A stretch of 64,000 nucleotides of DNA from contig CAIKAW010000081.1 in assembly GCA_903825575.1 (NCBI GenBank), positions 25,793-89,792 of the forward strand, read 5' to 3'. The notes beneath the pieces are model-generated. The model had not been told where the DNA came from and ran no database searches. It was given only the letters and a program-made list of their open reading frames with translations. Positions 2,543 through 56,541 of the stretch are shown one piece after another. Origin of the DNA: an uncultured bacterium (lineage in GTDB: Bacteria; Actinomycetota; Actinomycetes; S36-B12; CAIKAW01). Made by a program: the position numbers and the translations under genes. Position 1 is the stretch's first letter, and the number at the start of each line of letters is the position of its first letter.

Positions 2543-4213
2543 ATGGCTGAGTTCATTTACACACTGCAGAAAGCCCGCAAGGCACATGGCGAAAAGGTAA
2601 TCCTCGACAATGTGACTTTGTCTTTCCTTCCGGGGGCCAAGATTGGGGTTGTGGGCCCCAATGGCTCGGGCAAGTCGACCCTGCTGAAGATCATGGCCGG
2701 CATGGAGCACGTATCCAATGGCGAGGCCATGTTGACGCCAGGATTCAGCGTCGGCGTACTCCTGCAGGAACCCGAGCTGGACGAAACCAAGACAGTGCTG
2801 GGCAACGTTGAAGCTGGCGTGTCCGGCATCAAGTCGAAAGTCGATCGTTACAACGCCATCTCAGTCGAACTCTCAGAGCCGGATGCCGATTACGACGCGC
2901 TACTCGCCGAGATGTCGGTGTTGCAAGAAGCAATCGAACACGCCAACGCTTGGGACCTTGACGCCCAACTCGAGCAGGCGATGGATGCTCTGCGTTGCCC
3001 CCCATCTGATGCAGATGTGACGGTGTTATCGGGAGGAGAGCGTCGTCGAGTTGCATTATGTGCATTGCTGCTGAGCCAACCCGACCTGCTGCTGCTCGAT
3101 GAACCGACCAACCACCTCGACGCCGAGAGCGTGCAGTGGCTCGAACAGCACCTTGAGAAGTACCCAGGAACAGTTATCGCCATCACCCACGATCGCTACT
3201 TCTTGGACAACGTCGCGCAGTGGATCCTCGAACTCGACCGAGGACGCGCGTACCCGTATGAAGGCAACTACTCCACCTACCTTGAGACGAAGTCGGCCCG
3301 ACTTAAGGTCGAGGGGCAGAAGGACGTAAAGCTGCGTAAGCGACTCGAGGACGAGTTGGAGTGGGTGCGCAGTAGCCCCAAGGCGCGTCAGGCCAAGAGC
3401 AAGTCGCGACTTGCCAGGTACGAGGAAATGGCAGCCGAGGCCGATCGCACCCGCAAACTGGATATGGACGAGATCCAGATTCCACCGGGCCCGCGACTCG
3501 GAAGCGTCGTCGTGGAAGCGGACAAGTTAACCAAGGGCTTCGGCGACCGAGTCCTAATCGACAACCTGTCGTTCACGCTGCCGCGCAACGGAATCGTCGG
3601 CGTCATCGGCCCGAACGGAGTCGGTAAGACGACGCTGTTCCGCATGATCATCGGCGACGAAACTGTCGACAGCGGAAGCGTGCGAGTCGGTGAAACCGTG
3701 TCGCTGTCCTACGTCGATCAGGGCCGCAGCGGACTCGACGGCAAGAAGAATGTCTGGGAGGTCGTCTCAGACGGACTGGACTTCATCAAGGTGGGTAACG
3801 TCGAAATGCCAAGCCGGGCCTACGTTTCGGCCTTCGGCTTCAAGGGTCCGGACCAGCAGAAGCCGTCGGGCGTGCTATCCGGCGGTGAGCGGAACCGCCT
3901 CAATCTTGCGCTCACCCTTAAGCAGGGCGGCAATCTTCTGCTGCTCGACGAACCGACAAACGATCTGGACGTCGAAACGCTCGGAAGTCTGGAGAATGCG
4001 CTTCTGGAGTTTCCTGGTTGCGCCGTAGTGGTGTCGCACGATCGATGGTTCCTTGACCGAGTTGCATCGCACATCTTGGCGTACGAGGGCGATTCGCAGT
4101 GGTTCTGGTTTGAAGGCAACTTCGAGTCATACGAGAAGAACAAGGTGGAGCGGCTTGGTATTGACGCCGCCCGGCCGCATCGGGCGACCTACCGCCGACT
4201 AACCCGCGACTAA
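2543..4213 (+). CDS. ettA: energy-dependent translational throttle protein EttA (ABC-F ATPase)
   Basis: 556 aa. The N-terminus MAEFIYTLQKARKAHGEKVILDNVTLSF is EttA-like. It has two ABC cassettes with Walker A motifs GPNGSGKST and GPNGVGKTT and signature motifs LSGGERRR and LSGGERNR. Confidence 0.95.
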   Translation: MAEFIYTLQKARKAHGEKVILDNVTLSFLPGAKIGVVGPNGSGKSTLLKIMAGMEHVSNGEAMLTPGFSVGVLLQEPELDETKTVLGNVEAGVSGIKSKVDRYNAISVELSEPDADYDALLAEMSVLQEAIEHANAWDLDAQLEQAMDALRCPPSDADVTVLSGGERRRVALCALLLSQPDLLLLDEPTNHLDAESVQWLEQHLEKYPGTVIAITHDRYFLDNVAQWILELDRGRAYPYEGNYSTYLETKSARLKVEGQKDVKLRKRLEDELEWVRSSPKARQAKSKSRLARYEEMAAEADRTRKLDMDEIQIPPGPRLGSVVVEADKLTKGFGDRVLIDNLSFTLPRNGIVGVIGPNGVGKTTLFRMIIGDETVDSGSVRVGETVSLSYVDQGRSGLDGKKNVWEVVSDGLDFIKVGNVEMPSRAYVSAFGFKGPDQQKPSGVLSGGERNRLNLALTLKQGGNLLLLDEPTNDLDVETLGSLENALLEFPGCAVVVSHDRWFLDRVASHILAYEGDSQWFWFEGNFESYEKNKVERLGIDAARPHRATYRRLTRD

Positions 4214-4284
4214 CCCGCGCCTAGCCCGTGCCTAGCCCGCGCCTAGCCCGCGCCTAACCCGTGCCTAGCCCGTGCCCAACCCGT
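4197..4284. repeat. tandem repeat, 8 copies of an 11-bp unit (consensus GCCTAGCCCGY)
   Basis: The units are gactaacccgc x2, gcctagcccgt, gcctagcccgc x2, gcctaacccgt, gcctagcccgt and gcccaacccgt, read directly. The first two units encode the last ettA codons and its TAA stop. Confidence 0.9.
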
Positions 4285-4285
4285 G

Positions 4286-4390
4286 ATGAATGGCCCTTTC
4301 TTCGCGCTTGAATGTGCTGGATGTGCCACCTATGCGAACCCAGGGGACATTGATCATGGAAGCGGCGGAGTGAATGGCACTTTCATCCCG
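4286..4390 (+). repeat. interspersed repeat, copy A (full unit flanked by two shortened units)
   Basis: The core CACCTATGCGAACCCAGGGGACATT lies at 4327..4351. The shortened units are GAATGGCCCTTTCTTCGCG (4289..4307) and GAATGGCACTTTCATCCCG (4372..4390). Related copies lie at 15100..15170 and 55157..55228. Confidence 0.6.
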
Positions 4391-4778
4391 TGTGGGTGGT
4401 CGGGGTGTTGATCATGGACTCGGCAGCCATTGTGAAGTAGGTCCAGAACGCCTGGGCGAGTTCAGGCTCAAGTCCGCGGTTGGCCACGGCTACCGCCATG
4501 CACTGCAACCACCGGTCCCGCGCCACTTCATCTACGGGGAACGGCGCATGTCGCATCCGAAGTCTTGGATGCCCCCGGGCCTCTTGGTAGTCGCTAGGTC
4601 CGCCCCAGTACTGAACTAGAAAGAGCGTCAGACGTTCGGCGGCCTCGGTCAGTTCGCTGTCTGGGTACATCGGGCGCAGCACATCGTCGCCCGCAACCCC
4701 GATGTAGAAGTCGGCGACGAGGTCGACGAAAAACTCACGCCCCCCGACCTGTTCGAACATCGTCGCCTTGTCAGTCAC
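4383..4778 (-). CDS. glbO: group 2 truncated hemoglobin (GlbO-type)
   Basis: FEQVGGREFF..VLRPMYP..FLVQYWGGPSDYQEARGHPRLRMRHAPF matches the trHbO family pattern as remembered from M. tuberculosis GlbO. The start was placed at GTG 4778 (ATG 4760 is an alternative). The full ORF to 4865 would overlap the upstream MscS gene by 50 nt. Confidence 0.85.
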   Translation of the reverse strand: MTDKATMFEQVGGREFFVDLVADFYIGVAGDDVLRPMYPDSELTEAAERLTLFLVQYWGGPSDYQEARGHPRLRMRHAPFPVDEVARDRWLQCMAVAVANRGLEPELAQAFWTYFTMAAESMINTPTTHTG

Positions 4779-4815
4779 TGTGCACCCAATTCTGATTGAC
4801 CGCCGATGCTCTTGT

Positions 4816-5802
4816 TCATCCGCTAGGTGGGGTAGGCGGAGTGGGGGACGCGGGGTTGACGCCACCCAAGGTAGGCGTTCCAGGCGCGACGGTGCGCACT
4901 AACACTGGAACCTTGATTCCATTGCGGTCGAACGCCACCTTCACTCGCTCTCGGATTGCACGGGATGCCGGAATCTGCTGCGTGGGCGCAGCCTTCGCTG
5001 TGATGCGGACGAAGACCGCATCCCCGGTCACCGATTCGACCCCTGCGTAGGTAGGCACGCCCAGCAGCACATCGTCGAATGCTGGATCCGCATCCATCTC
5101 CTGGCCAACTCGGTCGATCACATCTCTCACGCGTTCCAGGTCTTCCTTGTAGGCCACAGGAATGTCAACAATCGCCAACGTCCAACCCTGGGAACGGTTC
5201 GCAACGCGCAGAATCTCGCCATTTCGCACATACCAAACGATTCCGGTTAGGTCGCGCAAGCGAGTGATACGAAGAGTTATCTCCTCGACTGTCCCCATCG
5301 CCGGACCAAGATCCACCACATCGCCGACACCAAATTGATCTTCGATGATTAGGAAGATCCCGGCGAGGAAATCTTTGACCATTGTTTGGGCGCCGAATCC
5401 GAATGCGACGCCGACAACGCTTGCGCTGGCTAGCAAAGGAGTGACGTTGATGCCGAGGATCGAAAGGATGAGGAGGAGCGCGATTCCCCATACCGTGAAC
5501 GCTACGAAACTGCGCAGCAACTGTCCAACGGCGCTGGCCCGCTGCTCGCGTCGTTCGGTCATCATGATCGGGGCGAGCTCTGCTGTGCGAGCTGCCTTCT
5601 TCACTTGTCCAAGTCGTTCCTTGCGGGCCGCAAGCGTCATCTGCCGCACAACTCGTTTGATGATCCGCACGAGGAGCCAGTGCACGGACCCGGCAACCAC
5701 GAGGATCAGCAGCAACTTCAACCCGCTACCGATCAGCCAAGTCACGGCTGGATTCTTTGCTACGGGCTTCGCTGCGGCAGCCAATAGTCCAACGGCAATC
5801 AT
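4816..5802 (-). CDS. mechanosensitive ion channel (MscS family) protein
   Basis: It shows the MscS core pattern LASASVVGVAFGFGAQTMVKDFLAGIFLIIEDQFGVGDVV. The start was moved to ATG 5802, which overlaps the TGA of the upstream peptidase gene (ATGA). Confidence 0.85.
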   Translation of the reverse strand: MIAVGLLAAAAKPVAKNPAVTWLIGSGLKLLLILVVAGSVHWLLVRIIKRVVRQMTLAARKERLGQVKKAARTAELAPIMMTERREQRASAVGQLLRSFVAFTVWGIALLLILSILGINVTPLLASASVVGVAFGFGAQTMVKDFLAGIFLIIEDQFGVGDVVDLGPAMGTVEEITLRITRLRDLTGIVWYVRNGEILRVANRSQGWTLAIVDIPVAYKEDLERVRDVIDRVGQEMDADPAFDDVLLGVPTYAGVESVTGDAVFVRITAKAAPTQQIPASRAIRERVKVAFDRNGIKVPVLVRTVAPGTPTLGGVNPASPTPPTPPSG

Positions 5803-14956: not shown

Positions 14957-15031
14957 TGGTGCCCCCGGAAGGATTCGAACCTTCGCCTATGCCTCCGGAG
15001 GGCACCGCTCTATCCCCTGAGCTACGGGGGC
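14957..15031 (-). tRNA. tRNA-Arg (anticodon CCG)
   Basis: The reverse complement is GCCCCCGTAGCTCAGGGGATAGAGCGGTGCCCTCCGGAGGCATAGGCGAAGGTTCGAATCCTTCCGGGGGCACCA. It folds as a cloverleaf with a 7-bp acceptor stem, a D arm GCTC/GAGC, an anticodon loop CUCCGGA, a T arm GAAGG-TTCGAAT-CCTTC and an encoded CCA. Confidence 0.9.
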
Positions 15032-15099
15032 TCGGGAAGGCGAGGTTATCAGTTGGCCGCCGGGCCGCGGCCGGAAGCGGCTCGAACCAAAACAAACCG

Positions 15100-15170
15100 T
15101 TCATTCGTGCTGGCTTCGGTTGTTCCACCTATGCGCGCCCACGGCACATTCTTCGCGAATGCGGGCGCGG
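15100..15170 (+). repeat. interspersed repeat, copy B
   Basis: The core CACCTATGCGCGCCCACGGCACATT lies at 15126..15150, between tRNA-Arg and argS. It matches copy C at 23 of 25 positions and copy A at 21 of 25. The flanks share TTCATTCGTGCTGG and TTCTTCGCGAATG with copy A. Confidence 0.6.
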
Positions 15171-15183
15171 GTAGGGTTCGGGG

Positions 15184-16875
15184 ATGGAAATTGGGCAGTT
15201 GCGCGAGGCTTTGGTGGCAGCTCTGGCGGCGGCGGTGGCCGCGGGCGAGTTAACCGCCGTCGAGCCACTGCCGACCATTGACTTCGAACGTCCACGCAAC
15301 CGCGACCACGGCGACTATGCGAGCAACATCGCACTGGTCTTGGCCAAGAGAGTTGGTCGCTCGCCCCGCGACGTGGCAGAAGTCATTGCAGCTCGCCTTC
15401 GCGGGACCCCAGGGGTGGAAGCAGTTGACATCGCGGGTCCAGGTTTCTTGAACTTGACCTTGGCCGCGTCTGCGCAAGGAGAATTAGCCCGCACCATCGT
15501 CGCCGCAGGAACGCAGTACGGCTATTCCAAGACGCTGGCTGGCGTTCGGATCAACGTCGAGTTCATTTCTGCTAACCCGACGGGACCGCTCCATTTAGGT
15601 CATACCCGTTGGGCTGCCGTCGGCGATGCCATGGCTCGTGTCTTGGCAGCGGCAGGCGCTGAGGTTGCGCGCGAGTTCTACATCAACGATCGGGGGGTAC
15701 AGCTCGACCGGTTTGGTGCCTCACTAGAAGCTGTCGCCACGGGCAAGGCGGTGCCGGAAGACGGCTACCACGGCAGCTACATCGTGGACTTGGCGGCTCG
15801 GATTGTCGCCGAACATCCCGGCATCCTCGAACTTTCACAGGCTGATCGGATGGTGGCCTTCCGAGAGGCCGGTTACGTACTGCAATTAGCCCAGCAACGC
15901 CAGGTCCTTGAAACCTTCCATACCCATTTCGACGTCTGGTATTCCGAGCGGACGTTGCACTCATCGGGCGCCGTCGAACGCGGCATGCAACGACTGCGCG
16001 AACACGGTCATGTGTTCGAGCTCGAGGGTGCAGTTTGGCTGCGCACTACGGACTTCGACGACGACAAAGACCGGGTGCTCATCAAGAGCGATGGAGAACT
16101 TACCTACTTCGCCAGCGACATCGCCTACTACGTCGACAAGCGGGACCGCGGCTTCGATATTTGCATCTACCTGCTCGGCGCCGACCATCACGGCTACGTG
16201 AACCGGCTGCGGGCTGTCGCCGCGTGTGCTGGCGATGATCCGAACTACGCCATCGACGTTGTGATTGGCCAGCTCGTCAAGATGATGAAGGGCGGCGAAG
16301 AAGTTCGCCTGTCCAAGCGAGCTGGAAACATGATCACCTTAGAAGATCTCGTAAACGAGGTCGGAGTTGATGCTGCCCGCTATAGCTTGATTCGTTATCC
16401 AGCCACATCGCCGCTGGTGCTCGACCTCGACCTGCTCGTCCAGCGAACCAACGAGAACCCGGTCTACTACGTGCAATATGCGCACGCTCGGATTAGTTCG
16501 GTGCTGCGTAATGCCAGCGAACTTGGGATCGACTGGGTCGCGGGCTCTGGTCCGGCCGGCCAAATTGCCATGGACGGTTTCGATGCGGCGTTGCTCGACC
16601 ACGAGCGCGAGAAGGCACTGCTTGGCACACTAGGTGAGTTCCCTCGCATCGTTGCATCGGCGGCCGAATTGCGTGAACCGCATCGGGTTGCCCGCTACCT
16701 CGAAGAACTGGCGACGGCCTACCACAAGTTCTACGACTCGTGCCGAGTGCTTCCTCGCGGCGACGAGTCCCTCGAGCCGGTTTCGTTTGCCCGCCTGTGG
16801 CTTTGCGCCGCGACCCGTCAGGTAATCGCCAACGGGCTCGATTTGCTGGGCGTCAGCGCTCCGGAACGGATGTAA
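15184..16875 (+). CDS. argS: arginine--tRNA ligase
   Basis: 563 aa. It has the class I HIGH-type motif (ANPTGPLHLGHTR), the ArgS C-terminal anticodon-binding region and the terminal ..GVSAPERM typical of ArgS. Confidence 0.95.
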   Translation: MEIGQLREALVAALAAAVAAGELTAVEPLPTIDFERPRNRDHGDYASNIALVLAKRVGRSPRDVAEVIAARLRGTPGVEAVDIAGPGFLNLTLAASAQGELARTIVAAGTQYGYSKTLAGVRINVEFISANPTGPLHLGHTRWAAVGDAMARVLAAAGAEVAREFYINDRGVQLDRFGASLEAVATGKAVPEDGYHGSYIVDLAARIVAEHPGILELSQADRMVAFREAGYVLQLAQQRQVLETFHTHFDVWYSERTLHSSGAVERGMQRLREHGHVFELEGAVWLRTTDFDDDKDRVLIKSDGELTYFASDIAYYVDKRDRGFDICIYLLGADHHGYVNRLRAVAACAGDDPNYAIDVVIGQLVKMMKGGEEVRLSKRAGNMITLEDLVNEVGVDAARYSLIRYPATSPLVLDLDLLVQRTNENPVYYVQYAHARISSVLRNASELGIDWVAGSGPAGQIAMDGFDAALLDHEREKALLGTLGEFPRIVASAAELREPHRVARYLEELATAYHKFYDSCRVLPRGDESLEPVSFARLWLCAATRQVIANGLDLLGVSAPERM

Positions 16876-49956: not shown

Positions 49957-50460
49957 CTAGCGGTCGGGTGGCGGCTGCGTGGTCGCCAATTGGGTAGTGG
50001 CTTGAGCGATCTGCTCGGCAATGAGTTCTACAACAGGAGCCACCGCACTACGCACAGCCTGCGTTAGGCCGGTGCCCGAAGACATATCGGCAACTTCGAC
50101 TCCGAGGATCACCAGACGCGTTGGCATTCGGTCAAGGGCGCGCCCGAATTCGATTGCGTCTTGGACACCCAGGGCGTGGCTACTTCTCCCGGCCGTAGTC
50201 AACTGCAGCCCGGAAGCATCAGACGTCGCCGTAACTTCGAAATGATGAACAGTGCCGGGCGGCTGGGAGCCCGATTCAGCCGCATCCACCAAGATCGCCA
50301 ATTCGCGGTCCTGCCAGCGTTCGACTAGAGCGGCCGGTTCGCCAAGTTCCTCAACCACGTCGATTGCTAAACCCAGCTCGGCGACCGCTTCGATGATGGC
50401 CAACCCAACCCCGTCGTCATGTCGGTACGGGTTTCCGATCCCGATAACAATCGGACGCAT
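49957..50460 (-). CDS. hydrogenase maturation endopeptidase (HyaD/HycI family)
   Basis: It has IVIGIGNPYRHDDGVG and a later His region. The start was trimmed to ATG 50460, which shares one nucleotide with the large-subunit TGA. Confidence 0.85.
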   Translation of the reverse strand: MRPIVIGIGNPYRHDDGVGLAIIEAVAELGLAIDVVEELGEPAALVERWQDRELAILVDAAESGSQPPGTVHHFEVTATSDASGLQLTTAGRSSHALGVQDAIEFGRALDRMPTRLVILGVEVADMSSGTGLTQAVRSAVAPVVELIAEQIAQATTQLATTQPPPDR

Positions 50461-51764
50461 CAGGCGCGGACAATCGTCAGGTCGAGGAAGTGAGTGGCGC
50501 AAGAAATGCAGGGGTCGTAATTGCGGATCGCTTGTTCGCACTGCCTAGTAAGTTCGCCGTCATCAAGATGCAGTCGTTGTGAAACGAACTCGCGCATGTC
50601 GTGCTCAATTGCGTGTTGATTCTGCGATGTTGGCGGAATGATCACGGCATCGAGCACTGAACCGTCGGCCCCGATGTCGTAGCGGTGGTACAAAGTCCCA
50701 CGAGGTGCTTCAGTGCAGCTATGGCCTCTACCGGCTCGTCCGATAACCGAAACCGAAGGGGCACGGGGAGGCGCGTAACTTTCAACGATCCGTAGAGCTT
50801 CATCAAGAGCAAAAACCAATTCCACAGCCCGCACGATGATGCTCTGGAAGGGGTTGCGACATACCGGTCCGAGCCCGGCAGAAACTGCGGCCTGCCTTGC
50901 GATTTCGGGCAACTTGTCGTAGTTCAACGAATAGCGAGCCAGTGGTCCGACGAGGTATTCCCCACGCTCAAGCAAGTGTGCCTGCAGGGCGTTGGAATGC
51001 GGCACGTGTTCCTCCGCCACGTGATCGAGGAAATTCGCGACATCGATATCGAGGCCACGATCCGAGACGAGTCGACCTTCGTTCAGCGGATACTCGTGAG
51101 GGTGGCGAAGTGAGACTAGCTCCCAGTCACCGTTGAAGTCGGGGAACTCGAAACCACCTACCCAGGCCACCGTGTCAAGGGCATCCTGCCGGGCGCGACG
51201 CAGCGGTTCGACTAGCGCGGCTAGCGCTGACTGACTTGGAGATCGGTAGAAGCCACCAACTCGCACATTGACCGGATGGATCGCGCGACCACCAACGATT
51301 TCGATCAACTCGTTGCCGACCTTCTTCATCCTCAAACCACGCTCGACCAGGGCCCGGTGGTCGCGTGCCAATTCGATTGCGCTTCGAAAACCTAGGAAGT
51401 CAGGAGCATGCAACAGATAGATGTGGAGCGCATGGCTTTCGATCCATTCACCGCAGTACAGCAGCCGCCGTAGGTCCCTCAAGTCTGCTGGAAGCGTGAC
51501 GCCAAGGGCCTGCTCAATCGCATGACAGGCGCTCATCTGGTACGCAACTGGACAGATGCCGCAGATGCGGGCTGTGATGTCCGGGGGCTCGGTGAAATTG
51601 CGCCCACGTAACAGGGCCTCGAAAAAGCGCGGCGGTTCGTAGATCTCAAGTCGAACGTCCGTAACTTGGCCGTCAACAACGTTGACATGCATGGCGCCTT
51701 CGCCTTCAACTCTGGTCAACGCCCGTACGTCTAGAGTGCGAATACCGCGATGTGAATGCGTCAT
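50460..51764 (-). CDS. hyhL: [NiFe] hydrogenase large subunit, group 3b-like (434 aa)
   Basis: The N-terminal NiFe ligand motif is [16 protein letters not shown]. The C-terminal motif is DPCISCATH, followed by a short cleavable tail. The short length fits the group 3 cytosolic enzymes. Confidence 0.92.
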
Positions 51765-52564
51765 TCAGAACCTCGCCTTGGGGACTGGATCGGGTACAGG
51801 GCCAAGGCGGCGGTCCTAAACTCCGGTGCGTTTACGTTGAAGGTGCTAAAGCTGCGTTCAATGTCGCGATCGTTGGTACCGACGCGACGCAATTGCTCTG
51901 TCAGAGCGGCTGTGTTAGCGCTTTCGCTGGGCCCAAAGCAGCCAAAGCAGCCGCGTCCAATCGAAGGGCAAAGGGAATGGCAGCCTGCTTGTGTCACCGG
52001 CCCCAAACACGGGGTCCCCGAAGCGACAAGCACACAGGCATTTCCAGCCTGCTTGCATTCTTGGCACACCGAGTAGCTAGGTAATCTGGGCGTACGGCCG
52101 GCTAGCAGAGCCGAGATCGCTTCCAGTAGTTGAGTTCGGCTGATCGGACAGCCGCGAAGTTCGAGATCTACCGGAACGTGGTCCGCGATTCCCGTCGATG
52201 TTTCGAGCGTCTTGATAAATTCTGGATGCGCATACACGATCGACGTGAATTCTTGGACATCGGCGGAGTTACGCAGTGCCTGGATGCCGCCGGAGGTAGC
52301 ACACGCCCCGATAGTCACTAACTTCCTTGACGCCGCGCGAACCTCGCGGATGCGTTCGGCGTCGTGAGCCGTGGTGATAGACCCCTCAACCAACGACACG
52401 TCGTACATCTGATCGACACGATCGTGGCCCGCCTCAAGAAAGTAGGCGATATCGATAGCCTCTGAAAGGCCGAGAATCTCGTCCTCGCAATCGAGCAAAG
52501 TGAGTTGACAGCCGTCGCAAGACGAGAATTTCCAGACGGCTAGCGTGGGGCGGCTCGTAGTCAC
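51761..52564 (-). CDS. hyhS: [NiFe] hydrogenase small subunit (delta; NuoB-like FeS protein)
   Basis: It has [20 protein letters not shown] and RGCP, plus a Cys-rich C-terminus. The start was placed at GTG 52564, overlapping the gamma-subunit TGA (GTGA). An ATGA overlap links it to the large subunit. Confidence 0.85.
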
Positions 52565-53412
52565 AGTTCGCGCACCCCAAGCATCGATTCCACTCTGGCC
52601 CACGGGAAGACCGGTCCGTCCGAGCAAACGAACAACTCGCCAAACTGGCAGTGCCCGCACATCGTGACGGCGCATTGCATGTTGCGTTCCATCGACACTT
52701 GGATACCTTCAGCGGAAACTCCGCGATCCAGCAGTGCGCGGGCACCAAATCGCATCATGACCTCTGGGCCGCACACGAATGCGACCGCATCAGTTAGGTT
52801 ATGTCGAATTCGACCGAGGAGTGTGGTGACCACCCCGACGTCGCCAGTCCAACCCGGAGCAGAGCGGTCGACTGTTGTCTCGACTTGGAGCGACAGGCTC
52901 CAAGCTGCGGTCTCAGCCGGGAAAAGCAGATCATTGGGCGTCCGGGCACCTAGCAATACCGCCACCTGACCGTAGGCTTCGCGATCCGCCAAGATTGCCT
53001 CCACAACTGGCCGCAATGGCGCCAGCCCAATCCCGCCGGCCATCACCACCACATCCTGACCTCGGGCTGGCGTCAGATCCCATCCGATGCCGAAAGGTCC
53101 ACGGACACCGAGTTGATCGCCGGGCCTGAGCTCGCAAAGCGCATGGCTCACGGCACCAACGTCGTGAATCGTGTGAAGGATGACGTTGGTTAATGGCGGG
53201 ACTGCGCAAAGCGAAATTGGTACTTCGCCAACGCCGTAGGCCCACAACATATTGAACTGGCCCGGCGCCGGAGCCGTCAGCGCGTCGCTCAACTCGATAA
53301 CAAGCGTGACTGTCCCTGGCCCTTCGACGACACGGTCAACGACCCGAGCAACGGTCGGCGTCATGGGGCCGGCGCCTGAGAGATCAGCTGGTCGGCGCAC
53401 GGTGGTACACAT
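52561..53412 (-). CDS. hyhG: hydrogenase gamma subunit: FAD/NAD(P)-binding oxidoreductase with C-terminal 2Fe-2S site (AsrB-like)
   Basis: It has a ferredoxin-NADP reductase-like fold ([13 protein letters not shown] and [10 protein letters not shown]) and a CxxxxCxxC...C cluster ([16 protein letters not shown]). ATG 53364 is an alternative start. Confidence 0.85.
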
Positions 53413-53851
53413 CCAGTAGTCGAAGGTGAGTTGAACGAAGGTCTGCGTCGAGTAGCGTCGAGAAGCGTTTCATCAGGTCGTAGCCCAGTACCGGATCGCT
53501 ATCGCACTTGCCTCGGATGCAATGGCCGTCGAATTGGATGGTCGCGAGAGGCTCGAGGGCTTCGGCGTCGAAGTGCCAGCGATATGGAGGGAACAGCCAT
53601 GACCAGCCGACAATCTGACCCGGGCCGCGCGTCTCCAATGTCACCAAGCCAGCGTGCGGTGTGTAGATGCCTAGCGCTACTCGGCCTTCGCGGATTAGAT
53701 GAAAGTCTGTGGCAGGCGCGCCTTCGGTGAAGAGTCGAGTGCCGGCGTGGATTCGCTGGTGCCGCGCGCAGCCCGCTAGGAGCGTCAGGGTACTTTCATC
53801 GATGTCGGCAAAAATTGGCTGCGCCGCAAGGGTTTCCATGATCGACTTCAT
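53384..53851 (-). CDS. stand-alone cyclic-nucleotide-binding-like domain protein (no HTH)
   Basis: 155 aa. FADIDESTLTLLAGCARHQRIHAGTRLFTEGAPATDFHLIREGRVAL is the cNMP/Crp-type beta-barrel pattern. An ATGA overlap links it to the upstream beta-subunit gene. Confidence 0.75.
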   Translation of the reverse strand: MKSIMETLAAQPIFADIDESTLTLLAGCARHQRIHAGTRLFTEGAPATDFHLIREGRVALGIYTPHAGLVTLETRGPGQIVGWSWLFPPYRWHFDAEALEPLATIQFDGHCIRGKCDSDPVLGYDLMKRFSTLLDADLRSTHLRLLDVYHRAPTS

Positions 53852-55161
53852 GTGGCTAGCCCTTCGTCGGTTTGTGGCCGAACACTTTCGGGGTACTTGG
53901 TGGCGGTATCTGTGGCCCGAATCGCCTCAAGTTCGGTCCTGATATCGATGCCTACCGGACAGGTAGTGATGCAACGACCGCAGCCGACGCAGCCAGACAC
54001 GTCAAACTGGTCAACCCAAGTCGACATCTTGTGGGTCAGCCACTGGCGGTATCGGGAACTGGTCGACGTTCGCGCATTCCCACCGTGCATTTGCGAGTAG
54101 GAGACACCGAAGCAAGAAGCCCATACCCGCGCTCGTACGACTCCATCATCGCCGATGGGGTTCTCGTCTACGACGTCGCTGCAGAAACAAGTTGGGCACG
54201 ACATGGTGCAATTCCCGCAGGATAGACAGCGGGCCGCTACGTCATCCCAACGCGGATTCTCGCGATTGCGGGCGAGTAGCTCGTGGACATCGTCAAGCTT
54301 CACGCCTTGTCCGATTGCGGTCGCCGCGGCCTGCACGATCTGGGTTGCGGCACCCGTTTCGGAATCAGATGCCGGTTTGCATGCGAGTTGAGCAAGCACG
54401 TCCGCCCCGGCTTGGGTTCCAGCATTTGCAACGAAATAATGGTCAGGGGAGTTGGGCGTTGAATTTACTTCGGTGAGCCGGATGTCGTAGCCCCCTGATG
54501 CTTCGGGCCCGGTACCTGCAGATACGCAGAAGCAGGTCGCCGCCGGACTGCCGCAGGACACAGCCACCACAAACATGTCTTGGGTATTTGCCGCGTAAGT
54601 CGGGTCGGGTGCTTCGGGTCGCATGAACACCCGGCGCTGGACGTCCAAGGCAGCGATTTCGCAGGCCCGCATTCCGATGAATGCATACCGAGGTCTCGCG
54701 GGGGGGATCGTGGTTATAGCTAGCGCGCCATCTTCACGTCGCGCCCGGAACAGTTCGCTGCGAGCCGGGAAGACGTAGCGCTTCCACGACGTCGGTGCCA
54801 GCGCGTATCCGAACAGTGCATCGTCGTCACGTCGTCGCAGTCGATAGTGACCGGGCCCCTGTTCATCACCCCAGCCGGACGGCAAATCGGCCGCGCCGCC
54901 GATTGGCTGATAGCCGATTACCGGTCCGTCGACCTTCGGGCCGATCACGGTGCGACCGTCAGCACCCAACCTGCGAATGAGTTGGTCGACGTCGGCGACG
55001 GTGAGGATCAAAGGACCGCCGAACGCTTGCGGCTCGATCTGGGGCTGAGGTTGCGGCGCCACTGGTTTCCTCACGGCACCATCGTCCTGCTGGGCGGGTT
55101 CGGGCTCAAGGGTCGTTGGGTAGCGCGTCCGGGAGTCATCAGACCCGAACATATCTTCCAT
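53848..55161 (-). CDS. hyhB: hydrogenase beta subunit: 4Fe-4S dicluster protein (AsrA/HydB-like)
   Basis: It has the ferredoxin-type motifs CLSCGNCTMSCPTCFC and CVGCGRCITTCPVG. It is the first gene of the tightly coupled hydrogenase cluster. The start is ATG 55161 (alternative 55152). Confidence 0.8.
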   Translation of the reverse strand: MEDMFGSDDSRTRYPTTLEPEPAQQDDGAVRKPVAPQPQPQIEPQAFGGPLILTVADVDQLIRRLGADGRTVIGPKVDGPVIGYQPIGGAADLPSGWGDEQGPGHYRLRRRDDDALFGYALAPTSWKRYVFPARSELFRARREDGALAITTIPPARPRYAFIGMRACEIAALDVQRRVFMRPEAPDPTYAANTQDMFVVAVSCGSPAATCFCVSAGTGPEASGGYDIRLTEVNSTPNSPDHYFVANAGTQAGADVLAQLACKPASDSETGAATQIVQAAATAIGQGVKLDDVHELLARNRENPRWDDVAARCLSCGNCTMSCPTCFCSDVVDENPIGDDGVVRARVWASCFGVSYSQMHGGNARTSTSSRYRQWLTHKMSTWVDQFDVSGCVGCGRCITTCPVGIDIRTELEAIRATDTATKYPESVRPQTDEGLAT

Positions 55162-55228
55162 TCATGGGTGCGCCGATTGTTTCACCTATGCGCACCCACG
55201 GCACTTTCCTCAGGTGTTTCGGAAGCGG
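55157..55228 (+). repeat. interspersed repeat, copy C (contains 8-bp hairpin GGGTGCGC-N16-GCGCACCC)
   Basis: The core CACCTATGCGCACCCACGGCACTTT lies at 55183..55207. The hairpin arms lie at 55166..55173 and 55190..55197. The repeat fills the 48-nt gap between the ccr stop and the hyhB start. Confidence 0.6.
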
Positions 55229-56541
55229 TTGATCTCGGTTAGGTGGCGGGCTCTTAGCTCTGGGTTTCGGACCCCCAGGCCTTCCTCGGGGGTCAGACAG
55301 CGCACCCCAACTTTTCCTTGGTGCAGGTTGCGGTGCACTTCGAATGCGGCCTGACCGGTGTCTTCTAGAGCAAAGGTTTTGGACAGCGTGGGGTGTACCT
55401 TGCCGCGCTGGATCAGCCGGTTGGCCTCCCAGGCTTCGCGGTAGTTCGCGAAGTGTGACCCGACGATTCGCTTCAGGCTCATCCACAGGTATCGGTTGTC
55501 GTACTCGTGCATGTACCCCGATGTTGACGCGCACGTGACAATCGTCCCGCCTTTGCGGGCGACGTACACACTCGCGCCGAAAGTCTCCCGGCCCGGATGT
55601 TCGAAAACGATGTCCACATCGTCGCCGTCAGAAAGGTCACGAATCTGGCGTCCGAGCCGTTGCCATTCCTTCGGGTCCTGGGTGTGCTCGTCTTTCCAGA
55701 ACTTGTACCCCTCAGCAGCCCGGTCAATGATCAACTCCGCGCCCAGGCTACGAGCTATCTCCGCCTTCTCAGGAGAAGACACGACGCAAATCGGAGTGGC
55801 CCCTCCATTGATTGCCAACTGGGTTGCGTAGGAGCCGAGGCCACCGGAGGCTCCCCAAATTAGGACGAGGTCGCCTTGCTTCATCCCGGCACCATTGCGT
55901 GAGACCAACTGGCGGTAAGCGGTGGAGTTGACGAGCCCGGGTGAGGCGGCTTCTTCCCAAGTCAAGTGGTCTGGCTTGTGCAGGAGTTGATTGGCCTTGA
56001 CTAAGGCAACCTGCGCTAGGCCGCCGAAGTTCGTCTCAAAACCCCAGATTCGTTGCTCGGGATCGAGCATTGTGTCGTTGTGCCCGAGTGGGCTTTCCAG
56101 CTCAACGGAAAGGCAGTGGGCGACTACCTCTTGGCCTGGTGCCCAAGTGTGGACACCGGGTCCAACCTTCAGCACGACGCCCGACAGGTCGGAGCCGATC
56201 ACGTGGTAGGGCAAGTCATGGCGTTTGGCCAGTGGGTTAGTGCGGCCGTAGCGCGCCAAGAAAGAGAATGTCGAAACCGGCTCAAAGATTGCCGACCACA
56301 CTGTGTTGTAGTTGATTGAGCTGGCCATTACCGCAACCAGTGCTTCACCGGGGCCAACCTCCGGTAGCGGGACATCTTCCACGTGCAGCGACTTACGCGG
56401 ATCGCGCTCGGGCGTCGACACGCCATCGAACATCTGTTGCTCGTCGCGGTGGACGGTCACGGCGCGATACGTCTCGGGCAGTCGAAGATTTCCGATCGAC
56501 TCGTTTGCGCCGGCAAGAATGGCGTCGAGGATCTGTTGCAT
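55210..56541 (-). CDS. ccr: crotonyl-CoA carboxylase/reductase
   Basis: 443 aa. The pattern LPETYRAVTVH..DPRKSLHVEDVPLPE..SSINYNTVWSAIFEP..RIWGFETNFGGLA is the Ccr-type MDR reductase pattern as remembered. AGGAG lies upstream of the ATG. Confidence 0.88.
   Translation of the reverse strand: MQQILDAILAGANESIGNLRLPETYRAVTVHRDEQQMFDGVSTPERDPRKSLHVEDVPLPEVGPGEALVAVMASSINYNTVWSAIFEPVSTFSFLARYGRTNPLAKRHDLPYHVIGSDLSGVVLKVGPGVHTWAPGQEVVAHCLSVELESPLGHNDTMLDPEQRIWGFETNFGGLAQVALVKANQLLHKPDHLTWEEAASPGLVNSTAYRQLVSRNGAGMKQGDLVLIWGASGGLGSYATQLAINGGATPICVVSSPEKAEIARSLGAELIIDRAAEGYKFWKDEHTQDPKEWQRLGRQIRDLSDGDDVDIVFEHPGRETFGASVYVARKGGTIVTCASTSGYMHEYDNRYLWMSLKRIVGSHFANYREAWEANRLIQRGKVHPTLSKTFALEDTGQAAFEVHRNLHQGKVGVRCLTPEEGLGVRNPELRARHLTEINRFRNT

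Follow-up and report, generated by a model that had tools for sequence, protein, structure and literature searches.

A REP-like repeat family at gene ends in an uncultured actinomycete: a candidate 3'-end module

Repetitive extragenic palindromic (REP) sequences, described as REP/BIME and REPIN elements in E. coli and Pseudomonas, are the closest known likeness of a family of intergenic repeats in the genome of an uncultured actinomycete (GTDB lineage S36-B12; CAIKAW01). Three copies lie in the window, by which is meant the whole stretch of 64,000 nucleotides analysed here (C81:25793-89792, C81 being contig CAIKAW010000081.1). It belongs to an assembly of 2.21 Mb in 108 contigs, with 60.8% GC and rated 95% complete. 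To judge by what its nearest Ccr and ArgRS homologs are called, the genome belongs to the order Nanopelagicales. Like REP/BIME and REPIN elements, the repeats are multi-copy extragenic imperfect palindromes that occur both as singlets and as inverted doublets and carry no U-tract. REPs within about 15 nt of a stop codon reportedly also affect translation of the upstream gene, a result ascribed to Liang, Rudd and Deutscher in Mol Cell in 2015. The bias in position is similar too: like REP/BIME elements, the repeats favour convergent and tandem gene ends and are rare between divergent genes (12, 11 and 2 copies, respectively). In E. coli the corresponding REP contexts are about 60/40/1% convergent/tandem/divergent, and REPs there serve as terminators that depend in part on Rho and as stabilisers of mRNA (bioRxiv 10.64898/2026.03.23.713779).

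In other respects the family departs from REPs. Its units measure 73–90 nt, against about 35 nt for a REP, and have no sequence relation to REP/BIME elements; they number 26, where REPs number hundreds. The 5' GTAG of REP/REPIN elements is missing, GTAG being found only where the neighbouring stop codon is TAG. No match to the REP-associated tyrosine transposase (RAYT; PF01797) was obtained in this genome, although the transposase was detected in control genomes; with the genome 95% complete, a gap is possible. The unit is directional, with one end lying 0–2 nt from a stop codon, and its core is kept as sequence while its palindromic arm decays. A tract richer in C than in G precedes the units, whereas E. 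coli REPs are without such a skew (bioRxiv 10.64898/2026.03.23.713779).

Three other kinds of element invite comparison. The interspersed repetitive units of mycobacteria (MIRUs) are likewise actinobacterial intergenic repeats with ends phased with the codons of the flanking genes and with a small frame resembling an open reading frame (ORF). MIRUs, however, form tandem arrays of 46–101 bp within operons and insert at start codons, coupling an internal ORF to the gene (PMC12548453), whereas the copies here, single or in inverted doublets, are dispersed and have their anchor at stop codons, and their ORF end is not conserved. Integron attC sites and the Vibrio cholerae repeats resemble the family as imperfect palindromes at, or overlapping, the preceding stop codon, with variable gene content beside them. 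The attC sites stand in arrays beside an integrase, whereas the present copies lie dispersed among housekeeping genes on 15 contigs (no search was made for an integrase); integron-like cassettes, which gene differences beside the units had suggested, were rejected on account of this scatter. Miniature inverted-repeat transposable elements (MITEs), among them Correia of Neisseria, ERIC, RUP and Nezha, resemble the family as short, dispersed, non-coding repeats found at gene ends that can bear signals for transcription. Unlike MITEs, the family has no constant terminal inverted repeats, no target-site duplication and no related insertion sequence (IS), and it is ancient at orthologous sites. Because the RAYT, the GTAG end and the unit length of REP/REPIN elements proper are all missing, as are the constant terminal repeats, target-site duplications and IS partner of MITEs, the family is classed as a REP-like variant and not as either of these.

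A likeness of another sort is to Rho-dependent terminators, with which the family shares a C-rich, G-poor tract of ~80 nt followed by a structured, G-rich segment at gene ends. Such terminators do not normally form a repeated, sequence-conserved family. Stem-loops have been found at the 3' ends of Rho-dependent as well as Rho-independent terminators (PMC13613805), and in mycobacteria Rho reportedly shapes much of termination (bioRxiv 10.1101/2022.06.01.494293).

The repeat unit and its anchoring to stop codons

A relaxed core search combined with an nhmmer profile over the whole genome places the 26 copies on 15 contigs, at about 12 per Mb. Each copy matches the profile over 74–98 nt at 44–79 bits, copy A of the window being the weakest (44) and the others scoring 55–79. 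All 26 fall between called genes; genes were called with our own codon-usage caller (1852 calls, 87% coding), and a Pfam check was made on the window genes and on ten other neighbours. The unit, about 73–90 nt long, is composed of a conserved core of 29–31 nt and a decayed palindromic arm, with a pairwise identity of 0.886 in the 29-nt core and 0.551 in the 40-nt arm. On the strand first reported its consensus reads gcGGAACAa..CG..CATTCntgg.TG.GCc.t.TGTgc-CRCCTAKGCGcACsCACGGCACTTTCWTC, followed by a purine-rich tail; on the opposite strand the unit begins nGA-WGA-AAG-TGCC.

The TTTCWTC end of the unit overlaps the stop codon of a long gene on the opposite strand in 12 of the 26 copies, against 2.8 expected (p<1e-6). 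The expectation is that of uniform placement inside each intergenic region, and 0 of 2,000,000 simulations reached 12. At the GGAACA end no stop codon is overlapped in any copy (0/26). The overlapping stop is the nGA of TGA-WGA-AAG in seven copies and the WGA of xGA-TGA-AAG in three full copies, while two copies have a TAG immediately ahead of ATGAAAG. The stops of glbO (4383-4385) and of a gene on C33 are a further two, and sit in extra partial GATGAAAGTGCC modules; with such partial terminal units included, the stop lies at offset -2 to +2 in 14/26 copies. Five more stops lie 5–20 nt upstream, and 19/26 are within 34 nt. The stop codon of ccr, the gene beside copy C, is native, as the C-terminus of Ccr is the same with and without the element: its last codons read ...NRFRNT* at an unchanged position both here and in a sister lineage carrying the unit, and also in a relative without it (L043; L numbers denote loci in relatives or on metagenome contigs, and G000 is the genome under study). 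The window copies and the stop codons beside them are as follows.

4283..4355, minus strand: copy A, the most degenerate unit (nhmmer 44 bits), between convergent ettA and glbO
4327..4351, plus strand: 25-nt core of copy A, from the pattern search
4372..4388, minus strand: extra partial terminal module (GGATGAAAGTGCCATTC on this strand); its TGA at 4383-4385 is the stop codon of glbO (Bac_globin), at +2 of the partial unit
15082..15154, minus strand: copy B, full unit (nhmmer 63 bits), GAAGAATGTGCC...TTTGTTTT on this strand, between divergent tRNA-Arg(CCG) and argS, with no stop codon to abut
15126..15150, plus strand: 25-nt core of copy B, from the pattern search
55139..55211, minus strand: copy C, full unit (nhmmer 70 bits), cc-TGA-GGAAAGTGCCGTGGGTGCGCATAGGTGAAACA... 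on this strand, in which TGA is the ccr stop codon, at offset -1
55183..55207, plus strand: 25-nt core of copy C, from the pattern search
55210..55212, minus strand: ccr stop codon TGA, overlapping the end of copy C

The first-pass annotation of the window had recognised the 25-nt core, as an unexplained family of three plus-strand copies. The core pattern, CACCTATGCGNNCCCASGGSACWTT, indeed matches only these three sites in the window, all on the plus strand, and finds 0 matches in 100 dinucleotide-preserving shuffles. The pairwise identities reported for the cores (21, 21 and 23 of 25) are reproduced, the similarity noticed in their flanks is real, and the gene contexts were rightly given as ettA/glbO for copy A, tRNA-Arg/argS for copy B and ccr/hydrogenase operon for copy C. 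Its doubt whether there might be only three copies, without conservation in relatives, is answered by the 26 copies and by the presence of two of the window copies at orthologous sites in a sister lineage; the termini of a known mobile element, which it had also considered, gave no match. The strand is another matter. The annotation had worked from the plus strand, and this was likely the reverse of the functional one, the stop-codon anchor of all three window copies being on the minus strand. Of the candidates that it had listed, a REP-like element is well supported by the 26 dispersed extragenic copies, their palindromic character, the inverted doublets, the bias to gene 3' ends and the lack of any Rfam match.

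Besides the 12 convergent, 11 tandem and 2 divergent copies, one lies beside a contig end. Convergent regions are thus enriched, as they make up 13–15% of the intergenic background (p=2e-5 to 1e-4). Of the 11 tandem copies, 7 turn the stop-proximal end toward the upstream gene; the remaining four include two that form the second half of an inverted doublet and one (copy B) that faces a tRNA gene. The genes next to the copies are of ordinary kinds. Those identified by Pfam are glyS, coaX, ispF, a carbamate-kinase-like gene, an aminotransferase gene, argH, leuA, serA, genes for an XPB helicase and an M20 hydrolase, ccr and glbO; genes for an acyl-CoA dehydrogenase and an aldehyde dehydrogenase were identified by eye. 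The adjacent genes (glyS, coaX, ispF, argH, leuA, serA, ccr, glbO and others) are so diverse in function that they do not constitute a regulon.

Inverted doublets are five in number (C9, C13, C22, C103 and L027), and the stop-proximal ends point outward in 5/5. Some copies are full palindromes (C22_-37153, C9_+13151, C13_-14173 and both L014 copies), which run TGAAAGTGCCGTGCGTGC...GCACGCACGGCACTTTCA and offer one stop codon for each convergent gene. Terminal inverted repeats are confined to these palindromic variants, standard units having unlike ends.

Individual loci show further arrangements. At C33:26490-26540 the terminal module GCACGGCACTTTCATGC of one copy is tandemly triplicated. Two C33 copies in direct orientation lie 1.1 kb apart around a gene of 313 aa, and in the relative represented by L014 two direct copies flank a gene differing from that in C33. 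The segment C9:11987-13179 holds, on one strand, glyS, a repeat unit, a 114-aa gene, an inverted repeat unit and dus; in the second unit, the ATG of the plus frame is in phase with dus, to which it would supply a plausible N-terminus, MRTHGTFLPDGGRPVVVLAPMAGVTN.

Base composition, folding and age of the copies

In the mRNA sense of the upstream gene, the 78 nt before the unit have a median C/G ratio of 1.59, compared with 0.93 for all gene 3' ends, and the ratio exceeds 1 in 25/26 of these tracts (Mann-Whitney p=1e-13). Past the TTTCWTC end, the next 40 nt are rich in G and poor in C, with a skew of +0.26 against -0.004 for antisense gene ends. The composition of the upstream tract is the signature of a Rho-utilisation (rut) site. 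A gene for Rho is present (PF07497 match, 97 bits, in a 583-aa frame at C81:48228). The tract before copy C is entered as a candidate:

55212..55289, minus strand: C-rich, G-poor tract (C/G 1.23), formed by the final 78 nt of ccr and preceding copy C in the mRNA sense; candidate rut region

Comparison of orthologs gives one case each way: at serA the C-rich tract co-varies with the presence of the element, and at ccr it does not. Canonical terminators, made of a hairpin plus a U-run, are scarce and not enriched in the window. An intrinsic (Rho-independent) terminator was rejected as an identity for the repeat, as the scan detected no hairpin-plus-U at the copies.

RNA of the minus sense folds, on average, at 3.3 kcal/mol lower than RNA of the plus sense. 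For copy C the ccr-sense strand reaches -28.7 kcal/mol (z=-3.35) and the plus strand z=-0.87, and some arms are perfect hairpins (C16, z=-7.8). A conserved RNA hairpin was nevertheless dropped, as there are no compensatory pairs and pairing of the arm is at shuffle level. The structured-RNA candidate of the first-pass annotation is in this sense left without covariation to support a conserved fold, and the arm is described here as a decaying palindrome because covariation is absent. Rfam searches returned only tRNA at gathering score in the window, and nothing overlapping the element at E<=1 on 10 copies; the other matches at that threshold were tRNAs and two sub-threshold ones elsewhere in the loci.

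The family is narrowly distributed among the genomes searched. A pattern search of 40 genomes of the same order gave 0 matches, and a sequence-only covariance model built from 31 copies matched 1/390 genomes of the order, namely this one (0/389 others). An exact scan of 185,579 species genomes produced a single match, which is without the flanks of the element. Metagenome contigs bearing the pattern are mostly from the same species, at 97–99.9% identity, and a few come from diverged relatives; one match, L025, was discarded as a core-only chance occurrence. In another metagenome contig, L018, the left half of C94_-9703 is followed by the right half of window copy C; this contig, a recombinant or else an assembly chimera formed at the 27-nt core that the two share, was left out of all conclusions. 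Breaks and mis-joins in assemblies can occur at these repeats.

Orthologous sites are found across considerable divergence. In a sister lineage, with Ccr 93% and ArgRS 80% identical and DNA 70–74% identical over 8 kb, the ortholog of copy C stands directly after the ccr stop codon (L038-L042) and that of copy B between tRNA-Arg and argS (L056/L057). Diverged contigs also hold orthologs of three further copies (L013/C78, L014/C33 and L015/C53), so that copies B and C and these three persist where the coding flanks are only 70–82% identical. Identity between orthologs is 0.59–0.76 and no higher than the paralog mean of 0.64, from which it follows that the arm has become saturated and the core has been kept. 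The sister-lineage copies share the states GAATGTGCC and CCATG, and two non-orthologous ones are 77% identical to each other, compared with 59–68% to their G000 orthologs, which suggests some homogenisation. For L013 and L014 the best match in G000 is the ortholog, a sign of vertical descent. Of one doublet, L060 keeps only a short remnant of the copy on the serA side.

Gene content changes beside some of the units. The genes next to the window copies, and one promoter-like hexamer, are these.

2543-4213, plus strand: ettA
4383-4865, minus strand: glbO (Bac_globin)
14957-15031, minus strand: tRNA-Arg(CCG), neighbour of copy B
15172..15177, plus strand: TAGGGT, a -10-like hexamer 6 nt before the argS ATG, outside the repeat, conserved with the start codon in relatives
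15184-16875, plus strand: argS
49957-55161, minus strand: NiFe-hydrogenase operon
55210-56541, minus strand: ccr

The hydrogenase operon has six genes, for an Fe-S protein, a cNMP-binding protein, an FAD/NAD subunit, the small subunit, the large subunit and a HycI protease. Its 5.2 kb are absent from the sister lineage, where ccr is followed instead by a convergent alpha/beta-hydrolase gene with its stop codon inside the unit. Since synteny is regained to either side, the operon represents a lineage-specific indel with copy C at its border. The putative start of its first gene, the ATG of the longest ORF, is at 55161 in the loop of copy C, CCATGAATGG (55159-55165), 48 nt past the ccr stop codon. 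Elsewhere, an acyl-CoA dehydrogenase gene (C53:3769-4980) with a TAG stop codon abutting a unit is absent from the metagenome contig L015, which is 97% identical to this genome on one side and 71% on the other, with a breakpoint about 12 nt outside the unit.

At argS, GGGTAGGGT followed by 6–7 nt and the start codon is conserved in G000 (15163-15186), L056 (5985-6003) and L057 (6003-6021), and the distance from TAGGGT to the repeat differs among them (17 nt vs 8 nt). TAGGGT is probably the -10 element of a leaderless argS promoter, separate from the repeat, and the annotated argS start in L057 is probably 18 nt too far upstream. Near copy A, an 11-nt tandem repeat, CTAACCCGCGC (7.7 copies, 87% matches), occupies 4199-4283 of the window. 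It begins in the last codons of ettA, whose stop codon is at 4213, and reaches copy A; together with the repeat unit it fills the spacer between ettA and glbO.

Candidate functions of the repeat

From its sequence and placement, we consider that this lineage-specific, REP-like family of extragenic repeats may act as a 3'-end module, probably as a Rho-assisted terminator or a 3'-end protector, and put the probability of this at roughly one half. The unit would work in the mRNA of the upstream gene whose stop codon abuts it. Once the ribosome has left at that stop codon, Rho would load onto the C-rich tract, and the G-rich, partly self-complementary repeat would pause RNA polymerase, form a 3' stem-loop that defines and protects the transcript end, or both. 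In inverted doublets and full palindromes it would act for both members of a convergent gene pair. That the minus-strand copy is transcribed as a 3' untranslated region (UTR), that Rho is involved and that termination or stability is affected are all parts that we infer.

Several observations weigh against a 3'-end module. For copy B and for those upstream of cysS and dus there is no gene end on which to act, yet copy B is conserved in the sister lineage; termination cannot account for everything. The operon after copy C starts inside or just after the unit, so that a strong terminator there would require a separate promoter. At ccr the tract is equally C-rich in a relative without the element, and the C-rich tract, which is coding, could reflect a bias of insertion or retention and not rut function. 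The scan for canonical terminators flags none of the three window copies, which have no U-tract and end only in TTTCWTC. Folding is heterogeneous, with z about 0 for copy B and a family mean of about -1; the RNAalifold consensus is weak (-3.4 kcal/mol) and free of compensatory changes, and the C16-derived arm helix is paired in 61.2% of cells, which is the shuffle mean, again without covariation. Such a module leaves the period-3 pattern of the other strand unexplained, and gene calls outside the window rest on our own crude caller.

A selfish or neutral non-autonomous element of REPIN, IS200/IS605-derived or MITE type, with no host function, would be an alternative. Such an element would insert by nGA/TGA or into DNA with C-rich/G-rich asymmetry, survive only where it does no harm, immediately past stop codons, and be kept recognisable by occasional gene conversion. 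It would sit well with a dispersed multi-copy family that has palindromic variants and inverted doublets, with sister-lineage copies that share GAATGTGCC and CCATG and are more alike when non-orthologous than to their G000 orthologs, and with the breaks in synteny and indels beside units (the hydrogenase operon, 5–6 kb, and the acyl-CoA dehydrogenase gene). The decay of the serA-side copy to a remnant in L060, the triplicated terminal module at one locus and the absence of covariation agree with it as well. Yet the genome holds no gene for a Y1 transposase/RAYT, TnpB, an IS4/IS5 DDE transposase or an IS110 transposase (PF01797, PF07282, PF01609 and PF01548, 0 matches). The only two contigs with rve transposase genes have nothing but chance words of 8–13 nt in common with the unit; these rve/integrase-core genes lie on short contigs of their own, C96 (3.7 kb) and C36 (2.1 kb), as open frames of 308 and 318 aa. 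Target-site duplications are absent from the flanks of the 26 copies, constant terminal inverted repeats are lacking, and the C-rich tract, at 78 nt, is longer than a typical target site. The copies are also old, occupying orthologous sites across about 74% DNA identity; those in L013 and L014 point to vertical descent, and a core 89% identical beside an arm decayed to 55% speaks for constraint on the core. We consider a selfish or neutral element unlikely. Were the 29-nt core a DNA or RNA binding site for a sequence-specific protein, whether nucleoid-organising, supercoil-barrier or regulatory, location at gene ends would be secondary. This would suit conservation that lies in sequence and not in structure, the retention of copy B in a divergent promoter region where no transcript ends, and the lineage-specific shifts in consensus, which fit co-evolution with a trans factor. 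No candidate protein was found, however, the dyad symmetry of the core is weak, and the functional diversity of the adjacent genes counts against a regulatory site; nor would a DNA-organising site predict strict orientation and anchoring 0–2 nt from stop codons. We hold a protein site to be improbable. Resemblances by eye to parS, a DnaA box, an SOS box and a promoter for an extracytoplasmic function (ECF) sigma factor were rejected, each fitting few copies or having the wrong spacing.

The readings that place function on the plus strand start from its frame, in which the first-pass annotation saw a possible micro-ORF or leader peptide. The peptides it gave, MRTQGTL.. (13 aa), MRAHGTF.. (40 aa) and MRTHGTF.. 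(14 aa), are correct. Its period-3 substitutions recur in the wider family, with qualifications: third-codon-position variability is reproducible in 36 distinct copies but only marginally significant (p about 0.01-0.07), and of the core positions on which it relied, 17, 20 and 23 vary almost only in copy A, whereas 11 is variable family-wide, together with 2, 7 and 14. Translation of an 8–11 codon peptide, V-[PS]-P-[MR]-R-T-H-G-T-F-[ILFM], as a leader or arrest peptide with the later sequence irrelevant, would explain a column entropy of 0.30/0.11/0.68 by codon position over GTN YCR CCT AKG CGN ACN CAY GGC ACW TTC NTS (33 nt; 36 distinct copies including relatives; permutation p=0.010). The frequent third-position variants are all synonymous, as are CAC>CAT and ACT>ACA in the sister lineage; codon 8 is invariably NTS and thus hydrophobic; the four G000 copies with AGG for ATG all have an in-frame GTG 9 nt upstream; and several copies lie 20–30 nt upstream of real genes (argS, cysS and dus). 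When corrected for six frames, however, the test of synonymous variants gives p=0.07 (8/16), and a minus-strand frame reaches 7/16. The frame has neither a constant start nor ribosome-binding signals, and its end is not conserved: the ATG is missing in 4/26 copies (AGG), L030 is without both ATG and GTG, and upstream stands CACCT or CGCCT (YRCCT), with no Shine-Dalgarno sequence and no TANNNT at leaderless distance by inspection. ORF lengths lie between 9 and >100 aa; orthologous copies at argS give 40 aa, 8 aa or a fusion to argS. Translation of about 70% of the copies would proceed into a convergent gene in the antisense direction, and the mini-ORF leaves both the anchoring to stop codons and the C>G tract unexplained. 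Such a peptide seems to us a long shot. A two-strand device would combine the two, with a 3' UTR running from the stop codon on one strand and, on the other, the core as a translated mini-ORF of 8–11 codons (V-P-P-M-R-T-H-G-T-F-hydrophobic) lying head-on to the stop. Ribosome occupancy, or a trans factor reading the codon-phased core, would then gate Rho access or hairpin formation and so link translation termination in about 20 housekeeping genes to the formation of transcript ends; this we regard as highly doubtful. We know of no earlier description of a dispersed family made up of identical, codon-constrained mini-ORFs with a stop-codon anchor. The unit might also be a plus-strand promoter and 5' leader, with GGAACA...CATTC as promoter and the core as transcript start, driving argS, cysS and dus or antisense RNAs against convergent genes. 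The doublets do face outward like divergent promoters, some copies are 20–30 nt upstream of starts, and GGAAC resembles an ECF -35 motif. Against this, no -10 motif lies at a fixed distance from GGAAC, the TAGGGT of argS is outside the unit with a spacing that varies (8 nt vs 17 nt), and about 19/26 copies face a gene 3' end. The promoter scan has no match in the copies, on which ground a sigma-70 promoter was rejected, and the whole proposal appears very remote. Recoding is scarcely credible: selenocysteine insertion or UGA readthrough would add a tail (W/R/G)-K-C-R-A/G-C-A up to an invariant in-frame TAG, and in its favour are a conserved structured sequence directly after UGA in 12 copies, always in the same frame, and that TAG 8 codons downstream. 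But ARAGORN finds no tRNA-Sec among 52 tRNAs in the 95% complete genome (selA and selB were not searched for), two copies use TAG in another frame, several stops are 5–20 nt upstream, the adjacent proteins are unrelated housekeeping enzymes and many copies are without an upstream ORF. A selenocysteine or readthrough signal was rejected for the missing tRNA-Sec and the mixed stop positions and frames.

Implications for transcript ends and repeat evolution

Streamlined freshwater actinobacteria are abundant and mostly uncultured. Should the repeat have no role at 3' ends, it would be one more lineage-specific repeat family and mainly a nuisance in annotation and assembly, assemblies breaking or becoming chimeric there. 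The residual codon-like periodicity is a small anomaly. REP-like elements can, at any rate, persist at the same sites across genus-level divergence without a recognisable transposase, and this persistence bears on the question of domesticated versus selfish repeats. If the family does act as a 3'-end module, a sequence-defined unit at about 20 gene ends would provide a handle on Rho-type termination and 3'-end protection in high-GC bacteria, and would be a portable part for reporter tests.

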